A DNA stretch of 15,546 nucleotides from Myxococcota bacterium (GCA_036337435.1 JAYZEG010000073.1:1-15546); one strand, 5' to 3'. Numbered from the stretch's first letter, positions 1 to 15,542 are shown. The notes: a model not told the origin generated them from the letters alone. Numbers and translations: made by a program.

Positions 1-1
1 C

Positions 2-568
2 CGCCACAGCCTCGAGGTCGGAGACAGCCTGAATTCCGGCCACGGCTGAGGGTTCGCTCGATAAAATGCCTTTTTCATCGAGCCAAAAGACCCAGGGGAC
101 ATCCTCATGAGGCCCTCCGATCCCTGTATCATCACTGATGACGAGCGTTTCTCCCAGGTCGGGCAGATAGACAGCACCGCTGATCTCCATGCGTGTTTTG
201 GTGCGCAGATCATCTGGCACTTGGACCGGCTGCGGGGTTTCGGATGCGGCGGGGTCTGTCGTCGATTTGGGCGGCTCACTCCCCTGGGGCGGCTCAACCT
301 GCCCAGCTGTATTTGCGAGGGGGGCTGGGACCGGAGGCGTGGGTCGCGTTCCTGGTCGTGGTTCTGCGCTTACAACTTCTCCAGGGAGAAGACGATTCTC
401 GTCGAGCAGAACATGGATAGCGCGTCCATACTCTGGGATTCGAGGATGCCGCCACAAGCGCGCCGGCAGCTGGACTATCGTACTGCCCACATTGGATACG
501 ACCCCTGTCAATGAACCGAGATGGGCCATGCGCCCCCTAGATTTGAGGGCCATTTGCTGACCGACACG
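2..568 (-). CDS. In-frame C-terminal continuation of the HlyD-type protein (MFP beta-barrel, Pro-rich linker, start of a beta-propeller-like domain); partial, runs off the left edge
   Basis: My translation of the same frame past the TGA at 569-571 gives 189 stop-free codons: RVGQQMALKS...LTGVVSNVGSTIVQLPARLWRHPRIPEYGRAIHVLLDENRLLPGEVVSAE (MFP barrel end, LxPG motif), a P/T/S-rich linker (about 361-236), then MEISGAVYLPDLGETLVISDDTG...PWVFWLD...VSDLEAVA. The ExSG / SDD / DLEx motifs resemble SdiA-regulated, DUF3616 and phytase-like propellers. It is missing from the ORF track because it has no stop inside the window. A possible restart ATG at 553 lacks a clear RBS. Confidence 0.8.
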
Positions 569-1423
569 TCATGGGCGGTGCTGCATCTCTGGCATATATG
601 CAGTGACTCTTAGGCTCTGAGTCTCCACCAACTCAATCACGGGCGTCCCTGCGACGACGGAATGTCCACGGGTTGCCAACACTTGAGTGACTTGCCCTGC
701 AAGCGGGGCTTTGATCGTGCGCCGTTTCATTCGGTCCAGGAGACCGTTGATGACCTGACTTTGTTTTTTCAGGCGGGCTTTAAAGGGGGCTAAACGAACC
801 GCGGACTGGTCTTGATTTAACCTTTTTACCGCCTCAGCGAGCTGCTGCGTTAATAATTTGTAGCCTGTAATGGCTTTAGGGCTGTGACGGCTTGCTCTAG
901 CCAGTCTAGCTTGTCGGGTTCTGAGCTGGGCGAGAGACTCTAAGGCGGCAACCCCCGCACGTTCAGCAATAGACAAACGCTTGAGTTGTTGTCCGAGTGT
1001 GTAAAGCTCAGCTCGTTGGCTCGCCGTCACGGCTTGCGCATTGGAATGTTGCGCTGTCGCTTGAGCTTGGCGAGACTGGAGCTCGATTCTGTCTTTTCCG
1101 AGGTCACTCAGGTACGCCTGTGATGCGGCCTCCATCTCAGCCGTCATCTCAAGCAACTGCGCTCTGGCGACGTCCAATTGAGCCGTCAAATCGTGCCGGC
1201 TCATCTGTATGAGAGACTCACCCGGCCCCACATGCTGTCCTGGACGGACCAGTATCTGCTCGACGACAGCCATTTCACTCAGCGAGAGTTGGTGGGTCTG
1301 CGCGTTGACCAACCCCTTAAGTTCAGCCCGACTCTCGTCGTGTCTGAGCCACAGGAACAGACTGGCCAATGCAGCCAGTACCCACACGCCGAAGCTTAAG
1401 ATTTTTCTCGTACGCAGATTCAT
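569..1423 (-). CDS. HlyD/EmrA-type periplasmic adaptor (membrane fusion protein), N-terminal part, interrupted by an in-frame TGA
   Basis: N-terminal TM anchor (ILSFGVWVLAALASLFLWL), first lipoyl half-motif VVEQILVRPGQHVGPGESLIQM, long Q/A/L-rich coiled coil, second half-motif IKAPLAGQVTQV..GHSVVAGTPVIEL. The start ATG overlaps the upstream TGA (ATGA, 1420-1423). The stop at 569-571 falls inside the beta-barrel. Confidence 0.88.
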   Translation of the reverse strand: MNLRTRKILSFGVWVLAALASLFLWLRHDESRAELKGLVNAQTHQLSLSEMAVVEQILVRPGQHVGPGESLIQMSRHDLTAQLDVARAQLLEMTAEMEAASQAYLSDLGKDRIELQSRQAQATAQHSNAQAVTASQRAELYTLGQQLKRLSIAERAGVAALESLAQLRTRQARLARASRHSPKAITGYKLLTQQLAEAVKRLNQDQSAVRLAPFKARLKKQSQVINGLLDRMKRRTIKAPLAGQVTQVLATRGHSVVAGTPVIELVETQSLRVTAYMPEMQHRP

Positions 1424-2106
1424 AACTCAGTGTGGGCGTCTTGAAGCATTAAGGTGAGGCCGCCGATTCCGGGTATTTGAGCCAGGGAGTCGACGAGTGT
1501 GTCGTGGGCATCCAAGGTTTTGAGTTTGACTTGATACGCGTATTCTAAGGCATCCCCCCGCCCAACATCCCGTACGGCAACGAGGACAAAACTGCGACAG
1601 TACGGGCCAAGGATTGCCTTGATTGTCTCTGCGCCTCCCGCCTCCCGGGGCAGCCAAAATCTAAGCATGCCATCGAAACGCTGGGTTCGACCCATCGGAC
1701 TCCATTCGACCACAAGCGCAGCCAATGAGAAAATGGCCGTACCAACGCAGGCAATGGCAAAGGCGCGTACGCCCGATGCGATTCCAATGGACAAGGCCGC
1801 AAACACAAAAATCATGTCTCGACTGTCTCGGACATTGGTTCTGAATCTCACCAGTGCCATCGTACCAAGAATCCCCAAACCTCGAGCTAAGTTATCGCCG
1901 ATGGCGAGCATGAGAATGGTGGCGACAATGGCGCCAAGGATTAACGATTGGACAAAGCTCCGTGAGTAGCTCAAGCCTTGATAGGTCTTCTGATAGACAT
2001 AGGCGATGATGGACCCAAGGACAAACGCCGACATGAGGCAGAGCACCGCTTGTTCAATCGTGGCCGGACTTAACCCTGTCGAGAACAAATTCTGTGTCTC
2101 GCTCAT
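1420..2106 (-). CDS. DUF4956 domain membrane protein (MgtC/SapB-like TM bundle plus C-terminal ACT-like domain)
   Basis: Signature IGDNLARGLGILGTMALVRFRTNVRDSRDMIFVF, 4-5 hydrophobic segments and a soluble C-terminal domain. Start reassigned to ATG 2106 (MSETQ), which has GGAGG 9 nt upstream and an ATGA overlap with the VTC stop. Confidence 0.9.
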   Translation of the reverse strand: MSETQNLFSTGLSPATIEQAVLCLMSAFVLGSIIAYVYQKTYQGLSYSRSFVQSLILGAIVATILMLAIGDNLARGLGILGTMALVRFRTNVRDSRDMIFVFAALSIGIASGVRAFAIACVGTAIFSLAALVVEWSPMGRTQRFDGMLRFWLPREAGGAETIKAILGPYCRSFVLVAVRDVGRGDALEYAYQVKLKTLDAHDTLVDSLAQIPGIGGLTLMLQDAHTEL

Positions 2107-2894
2107 GACGAAATGCCTCCGACTCGATCGGTCCAAGTCGACACACCCATATGCTTCAGCTCGGGTCGAGTGACTTCAACGGAGGTGGCATATTTGCTAA
2201 AACCCATGCGCTTTAGGCTAAACCGATTGACCACATCGGTCATCCAAAACGGGACGCTGGTTGTACACTTCAGTTCTAAAACCACGCCCGAGCCACCCAA
2301 GCCAAATCGACGTGGTGCATCCTCTCGGTACCAGCATTGATCATCCTCGATGGGTATCTCCATGCCGGTGGCAGCAGCACCCACGATATTATAGTCGAAG
2401 GTGACACGCCCGTAGTCATCGGTGGTGCTGACCCAAGCCTCGCGCTCGTATCGAACGACGGTGTTGGGACTGGCCATCGTTTGTAGAACGGTATTGATAA
2501 AGGTGTCATAGGCCAGGCATTGCTGGGTGTTTAAGCCGAGATGGGTCCACTCTCTGGGATCGTCAATAATCGATGGCCAACTACCAGCAGGAATCGGACA
2601 GCGTGTTTTCCGCACAATGTCCATCATGCGACGCTTCACCTCGAGAAAATAGGGCCCTGATTTATAGCGCCGAACCCGAATTTTAAATCGGCGCGGTACT
2701 CGGGTTCTGGTCTCTCGATACAACCGTTGATCCGGCGTATCAAAATAGAGGCTCGAGATGGTGTACCGACCATCATCGCCTGCCGTGTCTGGCCTGCAAA
2801 ATGGCTTGATCACCTCACGAACCTGCGCGACCTGATGGGGCATCAGTCGATACTTCATCTCGTATCGCTCAATGGTGGACATATCGGAACTCAT
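2103..2894 (-). CDS. VTC-domain (CYTH/TTM superfamily) polyphosphate polymerase-like protein
   Basis: Motifs ERYEMKY, ISSLYFDTPD, FKIRVRRY, FLEVKR, VRYEREAW, RVTFD, VVLELK and FSKY appear in the order typical of bacterial VTC-domain proteins. No TM segment or signal peptide. Alternative start at Met 2882. Confidence 0.92.
   Translation of the reverse strand: MSSDMSTIERYEMKYRLMPHQVAQVREVIKPFCRPDTAGDDGRYTISSLYFDTPDQRLYRETRTRVPRRFKIRVRRYKSGPYFLEVKRRMMDIVRKTRCPIPAGSWPSIIDDPREWTHLGLNTQQCLAYDTFINTVLQTMASPNTVVRYEREAWVSTTDDYGRVTFDYNIVGAAATGMEIPIEDDQCWYREDAPRRFGLGGSGVVLELKCTTSVPFWMTDVVNRFSLKRMGFSKYATSVEVTRPELKHMGVSTWTDRVGGISS
2116..2120 (-). promoter_or_regulatory. Shine-Dalgarno site (GGAGG) for the DUF4956 gene
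   Basis: cctcc on the + strand at 2116-2120, 9 nt upstream of ATG 2106. Confidence 0.75.
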
Positions 2895-2994
2895 AGCCCC
2901 CCATTAAACCCCAGGATCAGGACCTGCACAATAAAAGCACTTAAATCCGTATCCTTCGGTTCAAATCCGCCCCATTCAAGCCGCCGTCATGGAA

Positions 2995-4860
2995 TCAGCG
3001 CCCTCCACCCCAGACGCCCACGTCAAATCGCCCTCTGATAGGCGCGCCGTTGACCGTTGAGGCTTCATCGAAAGTCAGAATACCTTGATGACATCCACCA
3101 AGGGGGGTGACAGCATTGTTTCGTGGATTAAAGATGTTGACTCCGCAAAAGTTCTCTTCTGCGCCAAAATCAATCTCGACCCCAGTCCGAACCGATTCGA
3201 GGGGTACGACCATCACGAAAAAGTAAATTTGGCCGTCCTGCAACACCATTGGAATGATCAACTGAGCAGCTCGGTCCGATTCGGGCTGGAAACCCATCGC
3301 GGACCCGACACGTTCCACGTTGATGTCTTGCTCGTCGAGTGTCATCGAGAGCATACCGGTCCCCGTCTCGAAGAGATCGTCGTTGGGAAAAGACCCCCAA
3401 GTCGTTTCAAACTGACCTGACGCCGACCCGAACTCTGATTGGCATAGACCACCGCGGAGGTCGACAGTCCACTCGATCGGTCCCACCTCAAGTTCATAGC
3501 GCATGGCGACACCATGGGATTCCAAAAAGTTTAGAACATAAGTCAAATTATCATAAAACGCATCCAACCGATTCGCACGCACAGCGGACCCAAAAACACT
3601 GACCATCTCGTCGATGGAGGCCTCCAGCTCATCAACCCGCCAATGGGTATCCACCAACGAGGCCAAGCGCTCAAGATAGCGTCGCCGACCCTCGGGATGT
3701 AAGTACAGACGACGGCATAACAAGCCTGCAGCATTGACGGTTCTCGGCGCCGGCTGGCGCTCCTCGAAGAAGAGGATGGGTGTCTGAAAAGTCCCATCTG
3801 TTCCCCACGGAATGAACTGAATCAGACCTGAGGTGGGATCGTCGTAGAAATGGAAATTATTGGTATTACCCGAATACCCATCCCAATGTGCAACCATGAT
3901 CTCAACCGCCCAAAACGTAATAAACGCGTCTAGGTCGATGATTTCAGAGAGCCTGTCTAGTAGACGGTCATCAGGTTCCTGAAGCGCGTCCGTCAAGGCA
4001 TTAATCGAATCAAAGTTTGGTTCATCTTCGTTGGTCTTCTGCCGAATGGTGCCTGTCCAACCCACCCGAAAATCACTGAGGGTTCCCTCATAAAGATTGC
4101 CCTCATCGTCGTCAAAGTTCCGGCGGATGAATGGTTTTTTTAAGCTCTCGACATTAACGTAAACGCCCATGTCTTCCCCGTTGAGCACAACATGTGCGAA
4201 GTTACATCTCGGCGCAGCAATCCCCGCAGCCCTAAACAGGTCATAGGACAAACATTGTCGTACGAAAGCTGGGTCCTGTCTTGAGTTATTTAAGGTCAAG
4301 CGCTTCATGTCGAGATAGGTTTGGTCATCGACATATTTGTCGAATTTAACTTTAAAAGATGGTTTCGACGCGCTGACAGACCCAAAAAATCCTTTTTTTC
4401 GAATCCCCACATTTTCAAACTGCTCACCGTTTACGCTGACCCGGGCTGAGAACCATGTATATGGCGATGGGGGCAATGTACACTCTGGGGCTAGAATATT
4501 GAGTCCGGCGCGACGTTGAAAGCGAAGCGCATTGTAATCAGCAGGATCCATCTCGATATTGACTTCGAGCAAAGTGGTTCGCGCATAGACTTCATCTGAG
4601 CGATCAGACCCTCTTGAAGCATCGACTAGGTCAGGTCCGCCAAGGTCCGATGCTGAGGGTACACCGCCATCTGATTCGAGAGTGCCTTGGTCTGAATTAA
4701 GACCCCCCTGATAAGCATCTATGGGTCCGCTATCTTGCCCAACGGAGGCCGCAGCGTCCGAGTCACGAGTCGTGTCACACCCAGACTGGACCCACACCAT
4801 CATCCAGCATAAACCGAGAGTGCCAAACCTGTGGAACCATCTTGAAACCAATGCTTTCAT
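2995..4860 (-). CDS. CotH-family atypical kinase, predicted lipoprotein (variant active-site motifs), with an uncharacterised C-terminal beta-rich domain
   Basis: Lipobox-like VQSG-C, acidic D-x-G linker, then CotH motifs VGIRKKG, KPSFKVKF, KRLTLNN, DPAFVRQ, APRCNFAHVVLNG..GVYVNVE, GNLYEG, HWDGY, NNFHFY and FIPWGTD. RBS AAGGGAAGG about 8 nt upstream of ATG 4860. Confidence 0.9.
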   Translation of the reverse strand: MKALVSRWFHRFGTLGLCWMMVWVQSGCDTTRDSDAAASVGQDSGPIDAYQGGLNSDQGTLESDGGVPSASDLGGPDLVDASRGSDRSDEVYARTTLLEVNIEMDPADYNALRFQRRAGLNILAPECTLPPSPYTWFSARVSVNGEQFENVGIRKKGFFGSVSASKPSFKVKFDKYVDDQTYLDMKRLTLNNSRQDPAFVRQCLSYDLFRAAGIAAPRCNFAHVVLNGEDMGVYVNVESLKKPFIRRNFDDDEGNLYEGTLSDFRVGWTGTIRQKTNEDEPNFDSINALTDALQEPDDRLLDRLSEIIDLDAFITFWAVEIMVAHWDGYSGNTNNFHFYDDPTSGLIQFIPWGTDGTFQTPILFFEERQPAPRTVNAAGLLCRRLYLHPEGRRRYLERLASLVDTHWRVDELEASIDEMVSVFGSAVRANRLDAFYDNLTYVLNFLESHGVAMRYELEVGPIEWTVDLRGGLCQSEFGSASGQFETTWGSFPNDDLFETGTGMLSMTLDEQDINVERVGSAMGFQPESDRAAQLIIPMVLQDGQIYFFVMVVPLESVRTGVEIDFGAEENFCGVNIFNPRNNAVTPLGGCHQGILTFDEASTVNGAPIRGRFDVGVWGGGR

Positions 4861-5122: not shown

Positions 5123-5656
5123 TTAGAAGCTGCTTAACATCACGAAGAAGGCAAGTATCGAGACTGGGATTGCCGCCAGTGTGACAGCCGTGACCTTGAC
5201 GGGGGGATGGGCTGGGTCAACGGCCGCCGTAGCCCGATTTCTGAGTCGGCTAATCAAGGGACCGATGAATAATTCGGCGATGATCACAGCGTAAAATAAA
5301 GTCAGCAAAGCAACGGCCATGGCCGGTCCTATACTCTTCGGGTCGTCCATATTTGCAAGCATCGAGATCATACCGATCAGAGACCCCAAAACACCGCTGG
5401 CCGACGCGATAATCCGGACACTCGACAGGACACCGATGTGAACCCGAGCGTCCTGGTCTGAAAGCGGGCCCCGACCGAAAGCGGTCTTCAAGGCGGCCGC
5501 GATGGACCCGGGAGATTGATACGCACAGGAGAAGAAAATGGTGCCCCCGAAGACGTATGCAACACTTGGTAAATCGATATAAAGCCTGACTTCTCCCCCG
5601 TAAGACATGGCACCGAGCACGACGCCGATGCCCAAAACACCAAAAAGAATTCCCAT
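5123..5656 (-). CDS. Short MotA/PomA-like (MotA/TolQ/ExbB family) membrane protein, 177 aa
   Basis: DLPSVAYVFGGT (MotA TM2-like) and GVLGSLIGMISMLANMDDPKSIGPAMAVALLTLFYA..FIGPLISRL (PomA TM3-TM4-like). Start reassigned to ATG 5656 (MGILF), preceded by GGGGAGAGAG. Confidence 0.85.
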   Translation of the reverse strand: MGILFGVLGIGVVLGAMSYGGEVRLYIDLPSVAYVFGGTIFFSCAYQSPGSIAAALKTAFGRGPLSDQDARVHIGVLSSVRIIASASGVLGSLIGMISMLANMDDPKSIGPAMAVALLTLFYAVIIAELFIGPLISRLRNRATAAVDPAHPPVKVTAVTLAAIPVSILAFFVMLSSF

Positions 5657-6073
5657 ACTCTCTCCCCTTCGTTGCCATGCTACTGCATGGACGCAGATTG
5701 ATTGTGAGATCTCACACTCGAAGACGCCGACTCGTCTTCTGCGGTTCAAATTTTGCCCGACCACTTGTCGCCCAGAGCATGGCCGCAGGCCGACTCATGA
5801 GACCCGTCTTCACCAGTGCCCTACCAAAGATTAACGAATGTTTGGGCCCACGTCCTGAACTGAGCAAAAATTCCCACAAGGTCAGCGTGTTTGGCAGACA
5901 GCACCGACTTGATTCCAATGAGTACACACCTGCCCACGAACCCGGTTCGCGTTGTGGCCCCACAATCGCAAAAAGACCCGCTTTTGCCCCGATGATTCAA
6001 GCATGCTCATGGGGTCTTGTATTTGATCATAGTAGCGTGTTTTGATCGGGCATCGATTCGCAGTGAGTGTTCG

Positions 6074-8938
6074 ATGAGTCAAAAAAAACGACCCGACAAA
6101 TTTGGAGAGAAGACGATGGCTGCGGGGATAGCTCCAGATGACACGTCAGCTCAGTCTCCGACCGAGGCTCACGATCTGGTCTCCATGTTGATTGCAGAAG
6201 GCACATTGCGACGGCAGGAACAGGCCGAGAACATGCAAGAGGGTAGCGTGAACCAGACGGCCCTGTCGGCGCCGACCACCAACCTCCATGAGTCGTCGCC
6301 TGACGTATTGAATGTCAAACCGTTTTCCACCGATGTCACCCAGACCATCGGTGCCGCCGATGCGCTCACAGCCAGAGCGGTCATAGACGCATCGTATCCA
6401 CAGACCGAGCCATTGACGGAGCGATACGAGAAACTCGGTGAGCTAGGTGCGGGCGGTATGGGGCGCGTCCTTAAGGTGAAAGACAAGTTACTCAATCGTG
6501 TTCTGGCCATGAAAGTCATCCACGGTTATCTTTTTGAACACGAGTCTAATCTTCAACGTTTTGTGCAAGAAGCGCAGGTGTGCGCACAGCTACAACATCC
6601 GAACATTCTCCCTATTTATGACATCGGCATCCTCGACTCTGGACCCATCTTCATCACGATGATGGAGATTAAGGGGGACTCGCTGCACCAGCGAATTCAG
6701 GCAGTCCATGCCGCAAGCTCACACCAAAGCTGGCAAGACACAGAGGACGGGTGGAACCTTCATCGATTGGTGAGTGCGTTTCATGATGTATGTAAAGCGG
6801 TTTCTCATGCCCACGAAAACGGCGTCGTCCACAGAGACTTAAAACCAAAGAATATCATGATCGGTCCCTTTGGAGAGGTTCTCGTGGTCGATTGGGGCCT
6901 CGCCAAAGTCATTGAAGCAGATGAACTGAACAGCTCGGTCAACACCATTCGATCAACCCACGATGTGCAGGCAACAGCAGTTGGCTCTATTTACGGAACA
7001 CCGGCCTACATCGCCCCCGAACTGGCCACAGGTGAAGTAACGACAGCCAATCGACTGACAGACATCTATGCCTTAGGCGTCATTCTCTACGAAATCCTAA
7101 GGGGTCAAGCCGCGTACAGCGGTCAATCCATGCACCAGATCCTGATGCAAGTTGTGACGGCTCCCCAACCCGGATTTGAGTCAGTCAATGCATCGTCGAC
7201 CGACAATCCGACCCTGGAAAATGAATTGGCGGAGGAGGCCACATACGTGACAAATGGGGGGGCTCCCATCCCTGGTCTATTGGTCGAGATGTGTACAAAA
7301 GCGATGGCGCGGGATCCCCTTGAACGCTTCAAATCTGCGTCCGAGATGGTGGAGATGATAGGCCAATGGTTAGACGGGTCGCGTCGACGAGAAAAAGCAT
7401 TGGAGCTGGTCGGTGCAGCAAAACGACTTGAACAAGACATCCGAGACGCTGAATTGCGGGCGACGGACCTACTGGTGGCAGCCCAGGCATCGTCAACCGG
7501 GACATTGCCGTGGCAGTCGGACACCGCGAAGCTAGACGCATGGCATAAGGAGGATGAAGCGACTGCATTGCTCACTCAGTCGATGATTAAACGAACCGAG
7601 AAAATTCAGCTCTATCGCGCAGCATTGGCGCATAAAGATGATTTGGTTGAAGCACACATTGCGTTGGCTACATATTACAAAGGTGTTCATCAAGCTGCGG
7701 AAGAGGACGGAGACTCGGCGGAGGCAAAACGCTCAGAAATCATTCTTCGCGAGCATGTCAAAGCACTCCCGCTCCAGAGCGATATGAGACATGAGTTGAC
7801 TCGTTATCTTGACGGTTCAGCCTCCTTGAACGTATGCACCAGTCCCAGCGGAGCCTCCATCAGAATCGTCGCGTTCAGACTAGAAAACAGGCGCCTCAAA
7901 CTAGATCATGGCGATGAATTGGGTACAAGCCCGCTCAGAGACCATCCCCTTCAGATGGGGTCTTATTTGCTCAAAATTAACAAGGCGGGCTATCACGAAG
8001 CGATCTATCCAGTTTACAATCGCCGTCTGAATGATGTCAGCGGTCAGGATCCCGAGGGGGGTCCATTCAAAATCGAGCTCTTACCTTTAGGAACACTTGG
8101 CCCAGATGATTGCTATGTGCCCGGTGGATGGTGTCGACTCGGAGGAGACAGACAAACACCCAATAGCCTGAACAGCACCGTCGTCTGGGTTGATGGATTC
8201 GTCATGAGACGATTTCCAGTGACCCATGAGGAATACCTCAATTTCTTAAACGAACTGGTCAGTGCGGGTCGCGTCGACCAAGCCCTAAACCATGTCCCAA
8301 GAGAACAAAGTTCAACAGCAGATGAACTGGGTGCCATGGCCTATGCCCAGACCCCAAACGGCAGCTTTGAGCTACCACACGATCCCGAACGAGAGATTTG
8401 CTGGCCCAACCAGCCGGTCACCATGATTCAATGGAGGTCAGCTGTGGCCTATGCAGATTGGCTCGCTAAAAAAACAGGCATGCCTTGGCGACTCCCGATG
8501 GAATTTGAGTGGGAGAAAGCGGCACGCGGTGTTGATGGACGCTTCTACCCCTGGGGCAATGATTTCGATCCGTCCTGGGCCTGTATGAAAGACAGCCACC
8601 CCGACAAAATCTTGATGCAAGAGGTCGACACATTTCCTGCTGACGAGAGTGTTTATGGGGTACGAGGCACAGCGGGTAATACCAGGGATTGGTGTCTAGA
8701 CCGATTTAGGGAGAGCGGTCCACCGCTGAAGAACGGTCGACTTGTGATGCCAACGGCCGATGACTTAACAGACACTGGGTTTAAGTCAAGCCGCGGTGGC
8801 AGCTACGGCAACTCAGCGTCGCGTTCGCGGTCTGGCGATAGAGATTGGTGGTTTCCAGAGCGCAGTTATATCGGCCGCGGATTCAGGCTCGCTTGGGGAC
8901 TCAGCGACCGCACGAGTTGCCACTCTGACCCAAATTGA
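6074..8938 (+). CDS. Hanks-type Ser/Thr protein kinase fused to PEGA-like and FGE-sulfatase (SUMF1/EgtB/PvdO) domains
   Basis: Kinase motifs LGAGGMGRV, AMK, HPNI, VHRDLKPKN, DWGLAK, GTPAYIAPE and DIYALG. PEGA-like SLNVCTSPSGASI...LGTSP...LQMGSYLLKINKAGY. FGE-type PVTHEEY, PVTMIQW, RLPMEFEWEKAARG, YPWG, SVYG..GN..DW, RGGSY and GFR. Start uncertain: ATG 6074, or ATG 6116 (GGAG 8 nt upstream). Confidence 0.92.
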   Translation: MSQKKRPDKFGEKTMAAGIAPDDTSAQSPTEAHDLVSMLIAEGTLRRQEQAENMQEGSVNQTALSAPTTNLHESSPDVLNVKPFSTDVTQTIGAADALTARAVIDASYPQTEPLTERYEKLGELGAGGMGRVLKVKDKLLNRVLAMKVIHGYLFEHESNLQRFVQEAQVCAQLQHPNILPIYDIGILDSGPIFITMMEIKGDSLHQRIQAVHAASSHQSWQDTEDGWNLHRLVSAFHDVCKAVSHAHENGVVHRDLKPKNIMIGPFGEVLVVDWGLAKVIEADELNSSVNTIRSTHDVQATAVGSIYGTPAYIAPELATGEVTTANRLTDIYALGVILYEILRGQAAYSGQSMHQILMQVVTAPQPGFESVNASSTDNPTLENELAEEATYVTNGGAPIPGLLVEMCTKAMARDPLERFKSASEMVEMIGQWLDGSRRREKALELVGAAKRLEQDIRDAELRATDLLVAAQASSTGTLPWQSDTAKLDAWHKEDEATALLTQSMIKRTEKIQLYRAALAHKDDLVEAHIALATYYKGVHQAAEEDGDSAEAKRSEIILREHVKALPLQSDMRHELTRYLDGSASLNVCTSPSGASIRIVAFRLENRRLKLDHGDELGTSPLRDHPLQMGSYLLKINKAGYHEAIYPVYNRRLNDVSGQDPEGGPFKIELLPLGTLGPDDCYVPGGWCRLGGDRQTPNSLNSTVVWVDGFVMRRFPVTHEEYLNFLNELVSAGRVDQALNHVPREQSSTADELGAMAYAQTPNGSFELPHDPEREICWPNQPVTMIQWRSAVAYADWLAKKTGMPWRLPMEFEWEKAARGVDGRFYPWGNDFDPSWACMKDSHPDKILMQEVDTFPADESVYGVRGTAGNTRDWCLDRFRESGPPLKNGRLVMPTADDLTDTGFKSSRGGSYGNSASRSRSGDRDWWFPERSYIGRGFRLAWGLSDRTSCHSDPN

Positions 8939-9015
8939 ACTGCAGCCCATTGGATAATCGGCAACCGGGCCCAGAACAGGGGGGCACATAACGAATTTCG
9001 ATGGGAGTCCGCTCA

Positions 9016-10002
9016 ATGAAACGCAAGGTATTCATGGCTCTGTGGTGTTTTCTGCTCTGCGCCTGCTCCAATTCGGACACGACCCGTCGCGGGGGGCGCG
9101 CTGAGGGAGCAAAGAGTAATCAGGTCAAATCCAATGGCCAGTCCTCCAAGGCAGAGAACTCGATGGCCGGGCCTACAGCATCACCAGCATCACACACAAA
9201 CCAAACACCAGCTCCAGTGCCAGTGCCAGCATCAGCACCCTCGCGCTTTGATGCGGACATCAAGTCACCGAGGGAGATTCAGCCAACAAAGAAAGAAACG
9301 GGCCGCGTTGATGGCTTTAATATTCCAATCCATTCGCTCAAAGCAGACAAAGGTGATTGGGTCTGGGCAGCCGCCGCCAAACCCAAACAGCCAAGAAAAT
9401 TTATTTTTCGTCGCAGTCGAATCAAGGCCGTCAGACGAAATTCTGCAGTGGTGGGCGTCTTTGGCGAGGTGGCCCCAGCCGCGTTCATTTACCCATCCAA
9501 TTCAAACACTCACATTGCCATCGGTCAAACGGTACTCGCCCAGTCTGGTGCAACCAGTCTCTACGCGCGAGTGATTGCGAAAGACGGCCAACAGTACATA
9601 CTGGCAACCGGCCGGGCTAAACCCAGACAGGTTAAGAAAACGGCTGCCGAGTTGCGTCTGATTGAACCAGCGGCATGGCAAGCCGGTGGCGTCGTCATAT
9701 TTCGAAAGGGTCGAATTGAACGCAGCGCAACCATCGTTCATGTCGATGGCGAAACAATCTTTTTCACGACCTACAGCGGCGGATTAGACCAACGTAAACG
9801 GGCGGATTTGACCCTGGTTGACATGAGCCGACGATTTCAAGTCGGGGATTCTGTCTACGGCGAACCCAGCGGCGGGCTGAGTATGCACTACCAAAAAGGC
9901 CGCGTGGTCAGCGTGGACAAAAATCACACGCGCTATGAGGTGAAAACGAAAGATGGAAAGATGTTTGTAAGCAACTTTAAAACCATTGTCGCAGCACCGT
10001 AA
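9016..10002 (+). CDS. Lipoprotein of unknown function with tandem Tudor/SH3-like beta-barrel repeats
   Basis: MKRK n-region and lipobox LCA-C, with GGGAG 8 nt upstream of ATG 9016. An S/P/A-rich linker is followed by four roughly 50-aa units starting KGDWVWA, IGQTVLA, AGGVVIF and VGDSVYG. Domain identity is by pattern only. Confidence 0.75.
   Translation: MKRKVFMALWCFLLCACSNSDTTRRGGRAEGAKSNQVKSNGQSSKAENSMAGPTASPASHTNQTPAPVPVPASAPSRFDADIKSPREIQPTKKETGRVDGFNIPIHSLKADKGDWVWAAAAKPKQPRKFIFRRSRIKAVRRNSAVVGVFGEVAPAAFIYPSNSNTHIAIGQTVLAQSGATSLYARVIAKDGQQYILATGRAKPRQVKKTAAELRLIEPAAWQAGGVVIFRKGRIERSATIVHVDGETIFFTTYSGGLDQRKRADLTLVDMSRRFQVGDSVYGEPSGGLSMHYQKGRVVSVDKNHTRYEVKTKDGKMFVSNFKTIVAAP
9208..9240 (+). 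repeat. Imperfect hexamer repeat encoding a Pro-X linker (PAPVPVPASAP)
   Basis: cca gct cca gtg cca gtg cca gca tca gca ccc. Confidence 0.5.
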
Positions 10003-10032: not shown

Positions 10033-11796
10033 TCAAGGTCTCGCCTCAACAATATTTGAGGCAGCACTGCCCTGGGGACCATCAGGAGAGGGCCAAGCGG
10101 CATAGACTCGATATCGATAGACTTGTCCCATTTGGACCTGTTGGTCTGTCGCTCGAGGAGGCCGGTCGGGTTCGATGCCCATTCGGTTCGAAAAGTTCTC
10201 ACAATCAACCCCGTCGCAGCGCTGCAAAATGGTGAGTCCTTCACGATCGGAATTATCTGTCCAACTTAGGGTCACGCCATTTTGATCAATACGTTCGACT
10301 CGAAGGTCTGTCGGGTCGTCTGGACCGGGTTCACCAGGCATTGGTTCTCGCCTCTGAGTTGCTGATGGAGGCGGTTCGGACAAGGGTGAATCCAACTGCC
10401 TGCGCGCCGTCTGATAGCGTCGGACCATAAACGCCTTTAGGGACTGCACAATCCCTGGATAATTCGTGTCTGACTGCACGGTGACTCGACGGGGCGGATA
10501 AGGATCTCGGCTCAAACTCTCCGTCGCCTGCTGATACAAGGTGTCCAAAGCCATGCCCAGGATTTCAGGTCTAAAGTAGCGCTCTAAAATCCTCTCAGCA
10601 TGGCGCAGATAGCGACGCCTCAACGCACCATTGGACAGAATTCTTTCGATCAAAGGTCTGGGTGTAATCAGCAATGGCCACGATGCATTCCAACCGTCGA
10701 TGACAGGAATCCGTCCAAAGGCATTATCAGCAAACCCGACATCCAAATCCCAAGGTAAATAGTGGAGACGTCCGGTCTCTGGATTGTTGTAGATATAGAA
10801 ATTATGCGGTGCCTGACCCGTGTATTGGTCAAACGCGCCGCTGAAGACCATCACAGCCATCAACTTAATGAATGACTCAAGCTCGAAGATGGACTCCAAA
10901 CGTGCCTCAAGATCATCATCTGGCGTATCGCGAAGGAGGACGGATAAATCATAGAGCTCAGAGAAATCCGCTTCATTTTTATGGGTTTTTGGTTCAAAAC
11001 TCTGGGCATATTCGGACGGGTCATCCAGGACACGAAAATCTGACCCAGGGCCACCAACATGATTCTTGTAGAGCACGCCGTCACGATTTCCGAACACCCT
11101 TTGGAGAAATGATTTATCGATGCGCTCAACATTAACAAAGAGTCCATCAAAGACTCCGTTGATGGTCACTTCGGCATAATTTGCCCGCGAACAATGGATG
11201 CCCTCATTTCTTAAAATGTCGGTAATCAAGCGCTCAGAAAAAACAGACCCAAACTGAACCGCATTATCAAGAGCGACTCGACGCAAACCGAGAAATCGCT
11301 GGTCATCAACAAATTCACCGAACTTAATGAGCAAGCTGCGTTTCCACCATCCATCTGGATTTGATGAACTATTGCCTTTAAATCGAACGCCGACATTGTC
11401 AATTTCGATGTCGTTCCATCGGAAGCGAGCGGGGACATATACGCGTTCGGGGAGAGCGTCAAACATGCGTTGGCGGTCAGCCGGCGCAATGGTGATTTCA
11501 ATGTGCTGAATCTGCTCTCGGTCATAGAATTCATCTTGCTGCGTACCTGAGGTGAACTGGTCTCTTTCAGTTCCACCATCAGCCGCAGCTCCAGCGGAGC
11601 TCTGGTCCAAATCAGTTCCCTGCGCGCCGTCGGAAACCATAAAATCAGTGCCTTGGAGCGGGCCGTTCGTCTCCGAGGCTGCGCCCGATGAATCGCAGCC
11701 TAGGAGGGCAATGAGCAGAAGGCATGGTCCAAGTTGCCTTGCTAGATGACCTGCAGCGGGGATGCAACAGCGCAAGTGAAACGATACAGTTGGCAA
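10033..11796 (-). CDS. CotH-family atypical kinase, predicted lipoprotein, with a C-terminal fibronectin type III domain
   Basis: TTG start with GGGAGGG 7 nt upstream and lipobox LLG-C. CotH motifs VGVRFKGNSS, KRSLLIKF, LRRVALDN, SERL, GLFVNVE, GVLYK, FDQY, HNFYIY and LPWDLD. FN3 pattern PTDL..VTLSWTDNS...YRYRVYA...SN (about 10036-10314). Confidence 0.92.
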   Translation of the reverse strand: MPTVSFHLRCCIPAAGHLARQLGPCLLLIALLGCDSSGAASETNGPLQGTDFMVSDGAQGTDLDQSSAGAAADGGTERDQFTSGTQQDEFYDREQIQHIEITIAPADRQRMFDALPERVYVPARFRWNDIEIDNVGVRFKGNSSSNPDGWWKRSLLIKFGEFVDDQRFLGLRRVALDNAVQFGSVFSERLITDILRNEGIHCSRANYAEVTINGVFDGLFVNVERIDKSFLQRVFGNRDGVLYKNHVGGPGSDFRVLDDPSEYAQSFEPKTHKNEADFSELYDLSVLLRDTPDDDLEARLESIFELESFIKLMAVMVFSGAFDQYTGQAPHNFYIYNNPETGRLHYLPWDLDVGFADNAFGRIPVIDGWNASWPLLITPRPLIERILSNGALRRRYLRHAERILERYFRPEILGMALDTLYQQATESLSRDPYPPRRVTVQSDTNYPGIVQSLKAFMVRRYQTARRQLDSPLSEPPPSATQRREPMPGEPGPDDPTDLRVERIDQNGVTLSWTDNSDREGLTILQRCDGVDCENFSNRMGIEPDRPPRATDQQVQMGQVYRYRVYAAWPSPDGPQGSAASNIVEARP

Positions 11797-14078: not shown

Positions 14079-14099
14079 AAAAGCTTGCAATCGAAGGGT

Positions 14100-15542
14100 A
14101 TGGCCATCGTGCTCCATCGCGTCCTCTCTGCCGTTATGACAATCGGTCTCCTGGTTGCATGCGTAGACACCGACAACCAGTTGCAAACCGCCATTGTCGA
14201 CTCCGGACAAATGCACGTCTCAGATACAGGCATTGATGGGGGCTTTGAATCCGACGCCAGTGCACCGACGGTCGCCCTCGCAACCCCTGAGTATTGTGGT
14301 TCGTGTCATCAGCAGCACTTTGAGCAATGGCGCACAAGCATGCATGCAAACTCGGTGAAGGACCCGATTTTTAGAGCATTAAATAAAAAGGGCATTGAAG
14401 AGACAGACGGTCGACTCGATCAATTTTGCGTTCAATGCCACGCGCCCAATGCGTCGTTGAGGGGGATACTGCCCGTCATCGAGCGGGATGGACGATTCGA
14501 AATGCCTTTGGACCTGTCGAATCCACTCATTGGTCATGGAGTACAATGTACCTCGTGCCATAGCATGGCGAGGGTGGACGCCACCCAAAACGCAAAAATT
14601 GAACTCTCAGACACAACCTATTACGGGGTATCATCGAGTGAGAGTGCAACTCGCGCCCATCCGATTGAACCGTCGGCACTCTTCTCAGATCCCCTGCAGA
14701 AAAATATGCTGTGTGGAAGCTGTCATGATTTTGTCAATCCAAATGGAGTGAGACTCGATTCGACGTTTAGCACCTGGTATTCAAACTCGTATAACGACGT
14801 ATCTAACCCTGAACGCCACAGAACATGCCAAGATTGTCACATGCCTGAGTACGAGGGGCCAATCACTAAAGATGGAGAAACTCGGACTTTGCATAGCCAC
14901 CATTTTCTTGGCGTCTATCAAGCACTTCAAGCTGACTTTCCCGGAAAGGAACACCAAGCGCGGATCGCGCGCGACCTGCTCAGCGACTGTGCCCTCCTCG
15001 AGGTGCGATACAATGGAATTGATGAGCTCGGGAACGCTGTGGTCATCGTGTCAGTCGAAAATATAAATAACGGTCATCAATTGCCCGCAGGCTCAACGGC
15101 GGACACGCAGGTTTGGGTTCACTTACAAATCTTCGATGGCAACGACAACTTGGTTTTTGAGTCGGGTATGACTGACGAAAATGGCGACCTGATGGATGGC
15201 GTCCGCGGTCATAGTCTCGATCCCGATGGTGACCCCGAACTCATGCTCTTTGGTCAATTCATCTACGGACAAGACGGCGGCCACGTCAACTTCCCCTGGC
15301 AAGCCCATAGTTTCACCGACAATGTCATCGGCCCCGGGCAGCGAAAATGGCGAGATTTCGCCATACCAGCGCAGCAGATTAACACAAACCAATTCCGAGT
15401 ACTTGCAACCTTGAACTACAGAACATTCCCTCCGTTCTTAATTCGAGACCTGGTCGATGGAGGCTACCTGGACCCTCAAGATATCTCACCGGTCCCTACC
15501 ATTGAAATGGAACGCACTGAGGCGCTGTTTCCGTTGCAGTAG
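14100..15542 (+). CDS. Pentaheme c-type cytochrome lipoprotein (cytochrome c554/c552-like N-terminal domain plus C-terminal beta-sandwich domain)
   Basis: Five CxxCH motifs at 14295 (CGSCH), 14427 (CVQCH), 14547 (CTSCH), 14712 (CGSCH) and 14826 (CQDCH). Also W..SMHA, HSH.F.G and NGHQLPAGS motifs, and lipobox LVA-C. TAG at 15540-15542. The start could be GTG 14109 (AAGGGT 9 nt upstream). Confidence 0.9.
   Translation: MAIVLHRVLSAVMTIGLLVACVDTDNQLQTAIVDSGQMHVSDTGIDGGFESDASAPTVALATPEYCGSCHQQHFEQWRTSMHANSVKDPIFRALNKKGIEETDGRLDQFCVQCHAPNASLRGILPVIERDGRFEMPLDLSNPLIGHGVQCTSCHSMARVDATQNAKIELSDTTYYGVSSSESATRAHPIEPSALFSDPLQKNMLCGSCHDFVNPNGVRLDSTFSTWYSNSYNDVSNPERHRTCQDCHMPEYEGPITKDGETRTLHSHHFLGVYQALQADFPGKEHQARIARDLLSDCALLEVRYNGIDELGNAVVIVSVENINNGHQLPAGSTADTQVWVHLQIFDGNDNLVFESGMTDENGDLMDGVRGHSLDPDGDPELMLFGQFIYGQDGGHVNFPWQAHSFTDNVIGPGQRKWRDFAIPAQQINTNQFRVLATLNYRTFPPFLIRDLVDGGYLDPQDISPVPTIEMERTEALFPLQ

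Follow-up and report, generated by a model that had tools for sequence, protein, structure and literature searches.

A four-gene core encoding a VTC-domain protein, a membrane protein of the DUF4956 family, a HlyD-type adaptor (membrane fusion protein [MFP]), and a TolC-like outer membrane efflux protein (OEP) recurs in several bacterial phyla. We propose that this core builds a pump-less, envelope-spanning machine for the synthesis and export of inorganic polyphosphate (polyP), a reading whose chances we put at even. The stretch of DNA analyzed here, referred to as the window, is a 15,546-bp contig from a Myxococcota bacterium (GCA_036337435.1, JAYZEG010000073.1), and it holds the first three genes and about two-thirds of the fourth of an operon with the core VTC, DUF4956, HlyD-type adaptor, and TolC-like protein. 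The proposal is carried by a gene set that keeps its order and its coupling, with no pump gene nearby, by catalytic residues that are kept, and by the folds of the parts.

Gene layout of the window

The window is contig C73 in its entirety. It belongs to a metagenome-assembled genome (MAG) of 4.38 Mb in 95 contigs (87%-complete, 52.6% GC), whose closest named relatives are marine Myxococcota/Bradymonadia MAGs, and seawater and marine metagenome runs from several studies contain the stretch. ORF (open reading frame) calling and Pfam searches identified four minus-strand ORFs, all in the same direction, that encode a CotH protein, the VTC-domain protein, the DUF4956 protein, and the adaptor. The features discussed below are as follows.

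2995-4860, minus strand: CotH1, 621 amino acids (PF08757, 1.4e-45); exported CotH-family atypical kinase with a lipoprotein-like leader
2103-2894, minus strand: VTC-domain protein, 263 amino acids (PF09359, 4.8e-35); candidate polyphosphate polymerase
1420-2106 (ORF open to 2136), minus strand: DUF4956 membrane protein, 228 amino acids from the ATG at 2106 (PF16316, 5.8e-11)
572-1423 (ORF with stop 569-1423, 284 amino acids), minus strand: MFP gene, part before the stop (HlyD_3, 1.6e-8; Biotin_lipoyl; HlyD_D23)
569-571, minus strand: in-frame TGA in the MFP gene; a Leu codon in other strains and the sister species
2-568, minus strand: MFP gene, continuation after the stop in the same frame, cut by the contig end
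10033-11796, minus strand: CotH2 (PF08757, 2.7e-48; lipobox LLGC), also exported and of the CotH family; outside the conserved core

As an original prediction from the sequence of this stretch had claimed, the four genes are co-directional, ATGA stop/start overlaps at 2103-2106 and 1420-1423, read directly in the sequence, lock VTC to DUF4956 and DUF4956 to the MFP gene, and 100 nucleotides separate the CotH stop from the VTC ATG. GGAGG precedes the DUF4956 ATG at 2106, the start that we prefer for this gene; it gives 228 amino acids, the length seen in relatives. Promoter and terminator scans returned site numbers no higher than in shuffled sequence. Two contigs from an RNA-library run fall within the MFP gene (916-1227), a weak hint that it is transcribed. 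Because the window is the whole contig, the 3' end of the operon is missing.

Conservation of the core across genomes

VTC is present in 24 of 41 related genomes, and all 14 same-family loci that were fetched keep the order VTC-DUF4956-MFP. Pfam places an OEP (PF02321) immediately after the MFP gene in L013, L014, L015, and L022. A wider survey covered 80 loci, one genome per species, which were selected by two DUF4956 peptide patterns only and therefore blind to their neighbors; six-frame ORFs were scored against locally built hidden Markov models. Loci counted as evaluable if they left at least 1.3 kb of room for the MFP gene, or at least 4.3 kb for the MFP and OEP genes together. The survey spans Myxococcota, Acidobacteriota, Verrucomicrobiota, Planctomycetota, Fibrobacterota, Spirochaetota, Binatia, Bacteroidota, and Alpha- and Gammaproteobacteria. 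Locus L070 is from a cultured isolate of Puniceicoccaceae.

The MFP gene directly follows DUF4956 in 67 of the 75 evaluable loci (three of them rescued by eye), and VTC is in the locus in 71/80; the eight loci that lack the MFP gene are seven from Alphaproteobacteria and L079. Conservation of the adaptor beside VTC and DUF4956 in other genomes, on which the original prediction depended, thus holds strongly. The survey also bears out a co-occurrence with TolC that cannot be seen in the window itself: the MFP gene and a TolC-like gene occur together in 44 of 57 evaluable loci. Because the TolC-like gene follows in these loci, a trans-envelope route becomes much more credible. The overall interpretation of the original prediction, a polyP synthesis and export system including CotH, therefore stands in its conserved adaptor and hence its envelope route, whereas it overstated CotH, which is in the locus in only 21/80. 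A Pfam spot check of 15 distant loci recovered HlyD families in 13 and OEP in 9, leaving the most divergent ones unconfirmed.

As a control for specificity, we took 20 loci from the same phylum with the other, "canonical" type of DUF4956 (full-length Pfam matches, E ≤ 1e-35). VTC is adjacent in all 20 and CotH lies within 7 kb in 10, and neither the MFP nor the OEP gene was found in any of the 20. In a tree of 95 DUF4956 sequences (FastTree, midpoint root), the two types form two clean clades, with the MFP-less Alphaproteobacteria nested inside the MFP-bearing clade. The adaptor had been described as an extra element added to a usual triad of CotH, VTC, and DUF4956; the pattern is better described as two DUF4956 clades, one with MFP and OEP genes in 0/20 loci and the other with them nearly always.

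Neither the window's 11 ORFs nor the 180 ORFs lying up to 5.5 kb from VTC in 20 loci included an ABC, RND, or MFS family, with ORF picking imperfect in some high-GC loci. Gene spacing is tighter than chance: the 4-nucleotide VTC/DUF4956 overlap recurs in 30/58 loci and the gap is at most 20 nucleotides in 50/58, as is the DUF4956-MFP gap in 46/59, in counts that take the start codon nearest the upstream stop and are thus biased toward small gaps. Pairwise-identity matrices of the four proteins correlate over 56 loci (Spearman 0.62-0.83; highest, at 0.83, for DUF4956 and MFP), and this correlation reflects co-inheritance, not contact.

Two variant arrangements, each specific to a lineage, were also seen within the MFP-bearing DUF4956 clade. 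Loci of the Kiloniellales/Pelagibius group (L102-L104 and L108-L112) carry DUF4956 and then VTC, with neither adaptor nor duct, and loci of Saprospiraceae/Chitinophagales carry DUF4956 and then the adaptor, with VTC absent up to 9 kb away. Of 14 named control genomes, three encode DUF4956 (Bacteroides thetaiotaomicron, Corynebacterium glutamicum, and Methanosarcina acetivorans); CotH occurs in these three and in Bacillus subtilis, a genome-level co-occurrence with DUF4956 that reaches Archaea.

A Vtc4-like tunnel enzyme

The VTC-domain protein scores 121.7 bits against PF09359 (cutoff, 23; E = 4.8e-35) and covers model positions 2-233 of 235. Searched alone against the PDB with phmmer, it returned only 3g3o at E = 0.34, and the family profile was needed to reach Vtc4 (3g3q) at 2.2e-12. 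In the profile alignment with 3g3q and 8i6v, K14 is aligned to the Lys of RQTTKY, which the numbering of 8i6v from residue 195 makes K200, the catalytic residue of yeast Vtc4. Fourteen tunnel positions are invariant in 71 sequences (R10, E12, K14, R73, R75, E85, K87, K96, Y149, R151, R163, E207, K209, and K234). The protein consists of the VTC domain only, with no SPX domain and no hydrophobic segment. Together, these features suggest a soluble Vtc4-like triphosphate-tunnel enzyme and make it a candidate polyphosphate polymerase. The same genome encodes the polyphosphate kinase PPK1, and the VTC enzyme is therefore not needed for ordinary cytoplasmic polyP; PPK2 was not found in the 87%-complete assembly.

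An MgtC-like membrane protein

An AlphaFold2 model of the DUF4956 protein (pLDDT 78) has five helices followed by a beta-alpha-beta-beta-alpha-beta domain. This C-terminal domain is ACT/ferredoxin-like (best match, Z 10.3), and the C-terminal domains of MgtC proteins match the model as well (7qa5, Z 8.7; 2lqj, Z 8.5). The MgtC model PF02308 gives matches to the helical part in 49 of 77 DUF4956 members (best E, 3e-4), all below the gathering score of 31.4 bits; the window protein itself scores 10.4 bits (E = 0.89). Foldseek returned no match at E ≤ 0.001 for the whole model, a DUF4956 profile searched against PDB sequences gave nothing meaningful (beta-adducin, E = 0.15), and the 25 families that the 77 members match most often do not include DUF202. 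RND-pump entries in the Foldseek results were discarded as meaningless, with a root mean square deviation of about 20.

The model thus points to an MgtC-like rather than a Vtc1-like protein, and the suggestion that DUF4956 is the counterpart of the Vtc transmembrane helices finds no support. Between helices 3 and 4 comes a loop, RFRT..RD..RD, that is basic and conserved and that, by the positive-inside rule, would face the cytoplasm.

The adaptor, its in-frame stop codon, and the missing end of the operon

Before the stop codon, the MFP gene encodes an N-terminal membrane anchor (hydrophobic segment at residues 6-27), lipoyl halves, an alpha-hairpin of about 160 amino acids, and the start of a beta-barrel. 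The HlyD_3 score of 35.6 bits exceeds its cutoff of 22.2, a match to the HlyD family of adaptors, and the NCBIfam adaptor models TIGR01730 (RND_mfp), DevB, HlyD, and EmrA also match, all below their curated cutoffs. The 284 amino acids of this ORF are not the whole gene: the ORF is truncated by an in-frame TGA, and the frame continues to the first base of the contig. By alignment to the full-length proteins of the sister species (G002) and a third species of the genus (G003), positions 2-568 encode the remainder of the beta-barrel (about 374-568), a Pro-rich linker (about 239-373), and the first 79 or so residues of a beta-propeller (2-238). In relatives the MFP is a single ORF of about 650 to 750 amino acids, and that of the sister species is intact at 700.

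It is somewhat unlikely, in our estimate, that the nonsense codon is real and the cassette defunct, a decaying pseudogene cluster in this genome. The TGA at 569-571 itself would fit such decay, as would a TGA in the third species (L014, about 10180-10182), which is in frame and five codons further on. Evidence from other strains points the other way. The sister species, whose proteins are 82 to 93% identical, has an intact ORF with TTG (Leu) at the site, and two runs from two other studies (X1 and X3, about 98 to 99% identical to the window) have A at plus-strand position 570, which makes the codon TTA (Leu). Among contigs from other studies, these two are the only ones to span the site; run X2 has no coverage of 570. 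Beyond the TGA, the sequence is conserved with no further stops in 189 codons, and the ratio of nonsynonymous to synonymous substitution rates (dN/dS) in the propeller part is about 0.25, a rough estimate with dS saturated. In addition, UGA followed by C is a leaky stop context. Because other strains and the sister species have TTA or TTG and the downstream sequence is constrained, we conclude that the TGA is a strain-specific nonsense change or a consensus error and no feature of the system, although this copy may be broken.

The two TGAs, in the window and in the third species, both fall at the junction of lipoyl domain and beta-barrel, and conserved coding sequence continues past both; the pairing may be a coincidence, an assembly error, or tolerated read-through. 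A selenocysteine codon or an altered code was rejected as the explanation, since the aligned residues of relatives are Leu, Val, Gln, and Ile and never Cys, TGA ends VTC and DUF4956 normally in the same operon, and other strains have TTA.

In the sister species, the gene after the MFP encodes a 403-amino-acid TolC-family lipoprotein (PF02321). Contig C38 of the same MAG as the window opens with the genes that follow this OEP gene in the sister species, and the OEP gene and the rest of the MFP gene therefore probably lie in the assembly gap between C73 and C38, as judged from synteny. A search with the sister-species OEP found no match in the window's 87%-complete assembly.

A beta-propeller fused to the adaptor

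The propeller of the sister-species adaptor is modeled as five-bladed (pLDDT 88.6, pTM 0.89). Its best solved match is the C-terminal domain of Escherichia coli YjiK (3qqz; Z 17.1, root mean square deviation 3.0 over 199 residues), followed at Z 13-15 by the propellers of GH130 and GH43 enzymes, glutaminyl cyclase, and apyrase. Pfam gave a sub-threshold Phytase-like match in only three of six copies, and look-alike clusters in the structure Atlas carry the same families as the propeller (Phytase-like and DUF3616). In about 24 of 80 loci, most of them from Myxococcota, the propeller is part of the adaptor as a periplasmic domain. A stand-alone homologue sits beside VTC in at least five other loci. 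The propeller therefore seems to be a fifth part of the system, one that recurs. The stand-alone form is divergent and just upstream of VTC in L027 (6702-7871, minus strand), L090, L095, L096, and L100; the L027 copy matches DUF3616 at 4e-7.

CotH proteins

Four CotH genes are present in the genome, two of them on the window contig. CotH1 matches Bacillus cereus CotH (5jd9) at 2.5e-10. Its leader is basic-hydrophobic and ends in ...VQSGC, with the Cys kept in the sister species; the earlier description of CotH1 as a lipoprotein is therefore plausible, although the leader is not canonical. Catalytic roles have been assigned to D228 and D251 of B. subtilis CotH in the accessible part of one study (10.1101/469122). 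By hmmalign, CotH1 keeps the Asp equivalent to D228 (HWDGY). In place of D251 it has Gly, and an Asp follows two residues later (IPWGTDG); about 8 of the 28 CotH proteins linked to the cassette show this variant. Both catalytic Asp positions are kept in CotH2 (AFDQY and WDLD). CotH had been taken as a fixed part of the set, which its occurrence in the survey does not bear out; it is a facultative neighbor of the cassette, and in this genus a gene for a CotH lipoprotein precedes the core.

Other genes of the window

Between the two CotH genes, positions 6017-8938 (plus strand) encode a 973-amino-acid fusion of a Ser/Thr protein kinase (Pkinase, 5e-38) and a C-terminal FGE-sulfatase/formylglycine-generating-enzyme-like domain (1e-32), 76% identical to the sister-species copy. 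The gene at 9001-10002 (plus strand) encodes a predicted lipoprotein of 333 amino acids (leader ...LLCAC) whose only family match is a sub-threshold Tudor-like one; it is 60% identical in the sister species, compared with 76 to 93% for its neighbors. At 14085-15542 (plus strand) lies a multiheme c-type cytochrome, for which the best NCBIfam models are named (seleno)proteins (ExtKL-like and UshA-like) and score far below their cutoffs.

A MotA/ExbB/TolQ-family proton-channel protein is encoded at 5123-5764 (minus strand), 260 nucleotides upstream of CotH1 and on the same strand. No ExbD/MotB-like partner was called alongside it, its synteny is kept in the sister species only, and its annotated GTG start is probably too early, with a homologue aligning from residue 31. 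We rejected this gene as an energizer of the cassette, since among the 80 loci it is nearby only in the sister species.

Proposed mechanism and alternative explanations

Bacterial polyP is generally attributed to PPK enzymes and regarded as staying in the cytoplasm, and to our knowledge the route by which it reaches bacterial surfaces or the environment is unexplained. In the mechanism that we propose, the soluble Vtc4-like tunnel enzyme, in which the catalytic residues are present, would polymerize the gamma-phosphate of ATP into polyP at the cytoplasmic face of the inner membrane. The enzyme would dock on the MgtC-like DUF4956 protein, an oligomer of which, with its basic loop, might thread the nascent chain through the inner membrane; this is the weakest step. 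The anchored long-hairpin adaptor and the TolC-like duct would then convey the chain over the periplasm and the outer membrane, as the conserved gene set suggests. With no ABC, RND, or MFS pump, the push would come from polymerization, a principle shared with the yeast VTC complex and synthase-dependent polysaccharide secretion. In Myxococcota, the propeller of the adaptor may, speculatively, bind, gauge, or trim the polymer, and exported CotH kinases could act at the cell surface as accessory proteins that use or modify it. That polyP is the product, that DUF4956 serves as the conduit, that the proteins touch one another, and that transport runs outward is our inference. The wider claim is that these loci define a new class of secretion machine of double-membraned bacteria, in which a Vtc4-like polymerase and an MgtC-like protein replace the pump, polymerization drives polyP through adaptor and duct to the cell surface or the medium, and CotH and, in Myxococcota, the propeller use, bind, or trim it there; we hold this tentatively, as somewhat short of an even chance.

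Several observations weigh against polyP export. The literature searched gave no activity, product, or localization for any bacterial VTC-domain protein, and a weak search among 5063 candidates gave no fused VTC-DUF4956 protein. MgtC proteins are known as regulators and binding partners rather than channels. No likeness of DUF4956 to the Vtc membrane part was found, and such likeness is not excluded, as the Foldseek and VIA-align matches are confined to the ACT-like domain (all VIA-align rows cover residues 141-227, with the membrane part barely tested). The window's own MFP gene is interrupted by a stop codon. Alphaproteobacteria of the MFP-bearing clade lack MFP and OEP genes in 7/7 loci with room for them (8 loci in the clade), and five Bacteroidota loci (L098, L099, L101, L105, and L106) have the MFP gene with no VTC nearby, so the parts can work in other combinations. 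Finally, Wza (Poly_export)/Wzz/Bac_transf genes lie divergently upstream of the cassette in 5/20 loci (L015, L019, L020, L021, and L023, all Myxococcota).

These last neighbors are among the reasons to consider a different cargo, which we regard as unlikely: VTC and DUF4956, in many cases together with CotH, would attach phosphate or short polyP to an exopolysaccharide, a lipid carrier, or a surface protein, and the adaptor and duct would move that product. GGDEF/EAL genes adjoin VTC in L030 and L032, and CotH is near the cassette far more often (21/80) than chance would place it with four copies per 4.4-Mb genome. In Gram-positive bacteria, according to the available text of two studies (10.1101/768473; 10.1101/2024.04.20.589940), CotH, a polyP polymerase, and DUF4956 are contiguous with the pel operon. 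Exopolysaccharide and pel neighbors therefore allow a polysaccharide-linked role. Exopolysaccharide genes are nevertheless absent from most loci, including the window; it is the four-gene core that is conserved, and Wzx/Wzy or synthase-dependent polysaccharides are not known to leave through TolC-type ducts. We think it quite improbable that DUF4956 and VTC are instead an MgtC-like regulatory or sensing pair that reads ATP, phosphate, or polyP and tunes an adaptor and duct whose pump is encoded elsewhere. Such a pair would suit the MgtC architecture, with its sub-threshold PF02308 matches and ACT domain, since ACT domains are typical ligand-sensing modules, and TolC-family ducts are shared between pumps in model bacteria. 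Adaptors, however, are usually encoded with their own pump, and none was seen within 5.5 kb in 20/20 loci; moreover, the end of DUF4956 is coupled, or almost coupled, to the start of the MFP gene, and these two proteins give the best-correlated pair of identity matrices.

A very unlikely explanation, in our judgment, is that the VTC protein is a hydrolase or another tunnel enzyme (a triphosphatase or a polyP- or nucleotide-binding protein) and the cassette serves phosphate or metal stress, for example by extruding metal phosphate. The tunnel metalloenzyme superfamily is catalytically diverse and includes triphosphatases and cyclases, which counts against a polymerase, as does the lack of a characterized bacterial VTC-domain enzyme in the literature searched. 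The match here, however, is specific to the VTC family and Vtc4, not Vtc2/3, and the catalytic Lys and basic tunnel are invariant.

If polyP export is the function of the core, bacteria would have a dedicated route for exporting polyP, the first of its kind, and the DUF4956/MgtC-like fold would gain its first biochemical role. It would supply a function for two large families, bacterial VTC-domain proteins and DUF4956, and would bear on how MgtC-like proteins work. Conserved in at least eight lineages with two membranes, the cassette would provide a polyP route open to testing, and in marine bacteria such as this one exported polyP would matter for phosphorus and metal cycling.

Comparison with known systems

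A literature search judged by titles and abstracts found no published description of a VTC-DUF4956-MFP-TolC cassette, and VTC is treated as eukaryotic in the accessible part of a review of polyP evolution. The eukaryotic VTC complex (yeast Vtc4/Vtc3 or Vtc2/Vtc1; PDB 3g3q, 7ytj, and 8i6v) shares the catalytic Pfam family, with the Vtc4 Lys and basic tunnel kept here, and the proposed logic is alike, in that polymerization would be coupled to membrane passage. In contrast, the window protein has neither an SPX domain nor a fused membrane domain, its partner is MgtC-like rather than a three-helix Vtc1-type (DUF202) protein, and there are two membranes to cross, by way of an adaptor and a TolC-like duct for which the eukaryotic complex has no counterpart.

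Tripartite exporters (HlyBD-TolC, EmrAB-TolC, MacAB-TolC, and AcrAB-TolC) share the HlyD/EmrA-like adaptor with its anchor, lipoyl domain, long hairpin, and beta-barrel, and, likewise, a TolC-family gene is next in the operon in relatives of the window. They differ in having an ABC, MFS, or RND pump, where here a 228-amino-acid MgtC-like protein and a soluble polymerase take the inner-membrane position, and the adaptor here often carries an extra C-terminal beta-propeller. With the MgtC/SapB family, the DUF4956 protein shares a membrane domain made of helices and, after it, an ACT-like domain in the cytoplasm, along with the sub-threshold PF02308 matches; however, 0 of 77 members reach the gathering score and the family is filed as DUF4956. 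We know of no MgtC gene that is operon-coupled to a tunnel enzyme or an adaptor.

In the Gram-positive pel accessory set, the three families likewise lie side by side, with export predicted for CotH (Whitfield et al., 10.1101/768473 = PMC7112168; 10.1101/2024.04.20.589940). There, CotH, the polyP polymerase, and DUF4956 appear as accessory genes of pel operons, DUF4956 as a four-transmembrane protein with an ACT domain, and polyP is suggested to stay in the cytoplasm. Those hosts have a single membrane and no adaptor or duct in the set, and the window's DUF4956 protein falls in a separate clade. No Pel family is found among the window's ORFs, and contiguity with pelD-G is absent there. The divergent exopolysaccharide cluster beside some cassettes echoes the pel linkage.

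Synthase-dependent exopolysaccharide secretion (cellulose Bcs, alginate, poly-N-acetylglucosamine, and Pel) offers an analogy in concept, an inner-membrane polymerase that pushes its product along a dedicated path across the envelope with no separate pump. As proposed here, and by analogy only, the polymer would be inorganic, the polymerase soluble and of another fold, and the adaptor and TolC-like duct would stand in place of the tetratricopeptide repeat/beta-barrel porin. Should the cargo be polyP, the core would be a new kind of secretion route. Relative to published systems, it is a set of known modules in a new combination.

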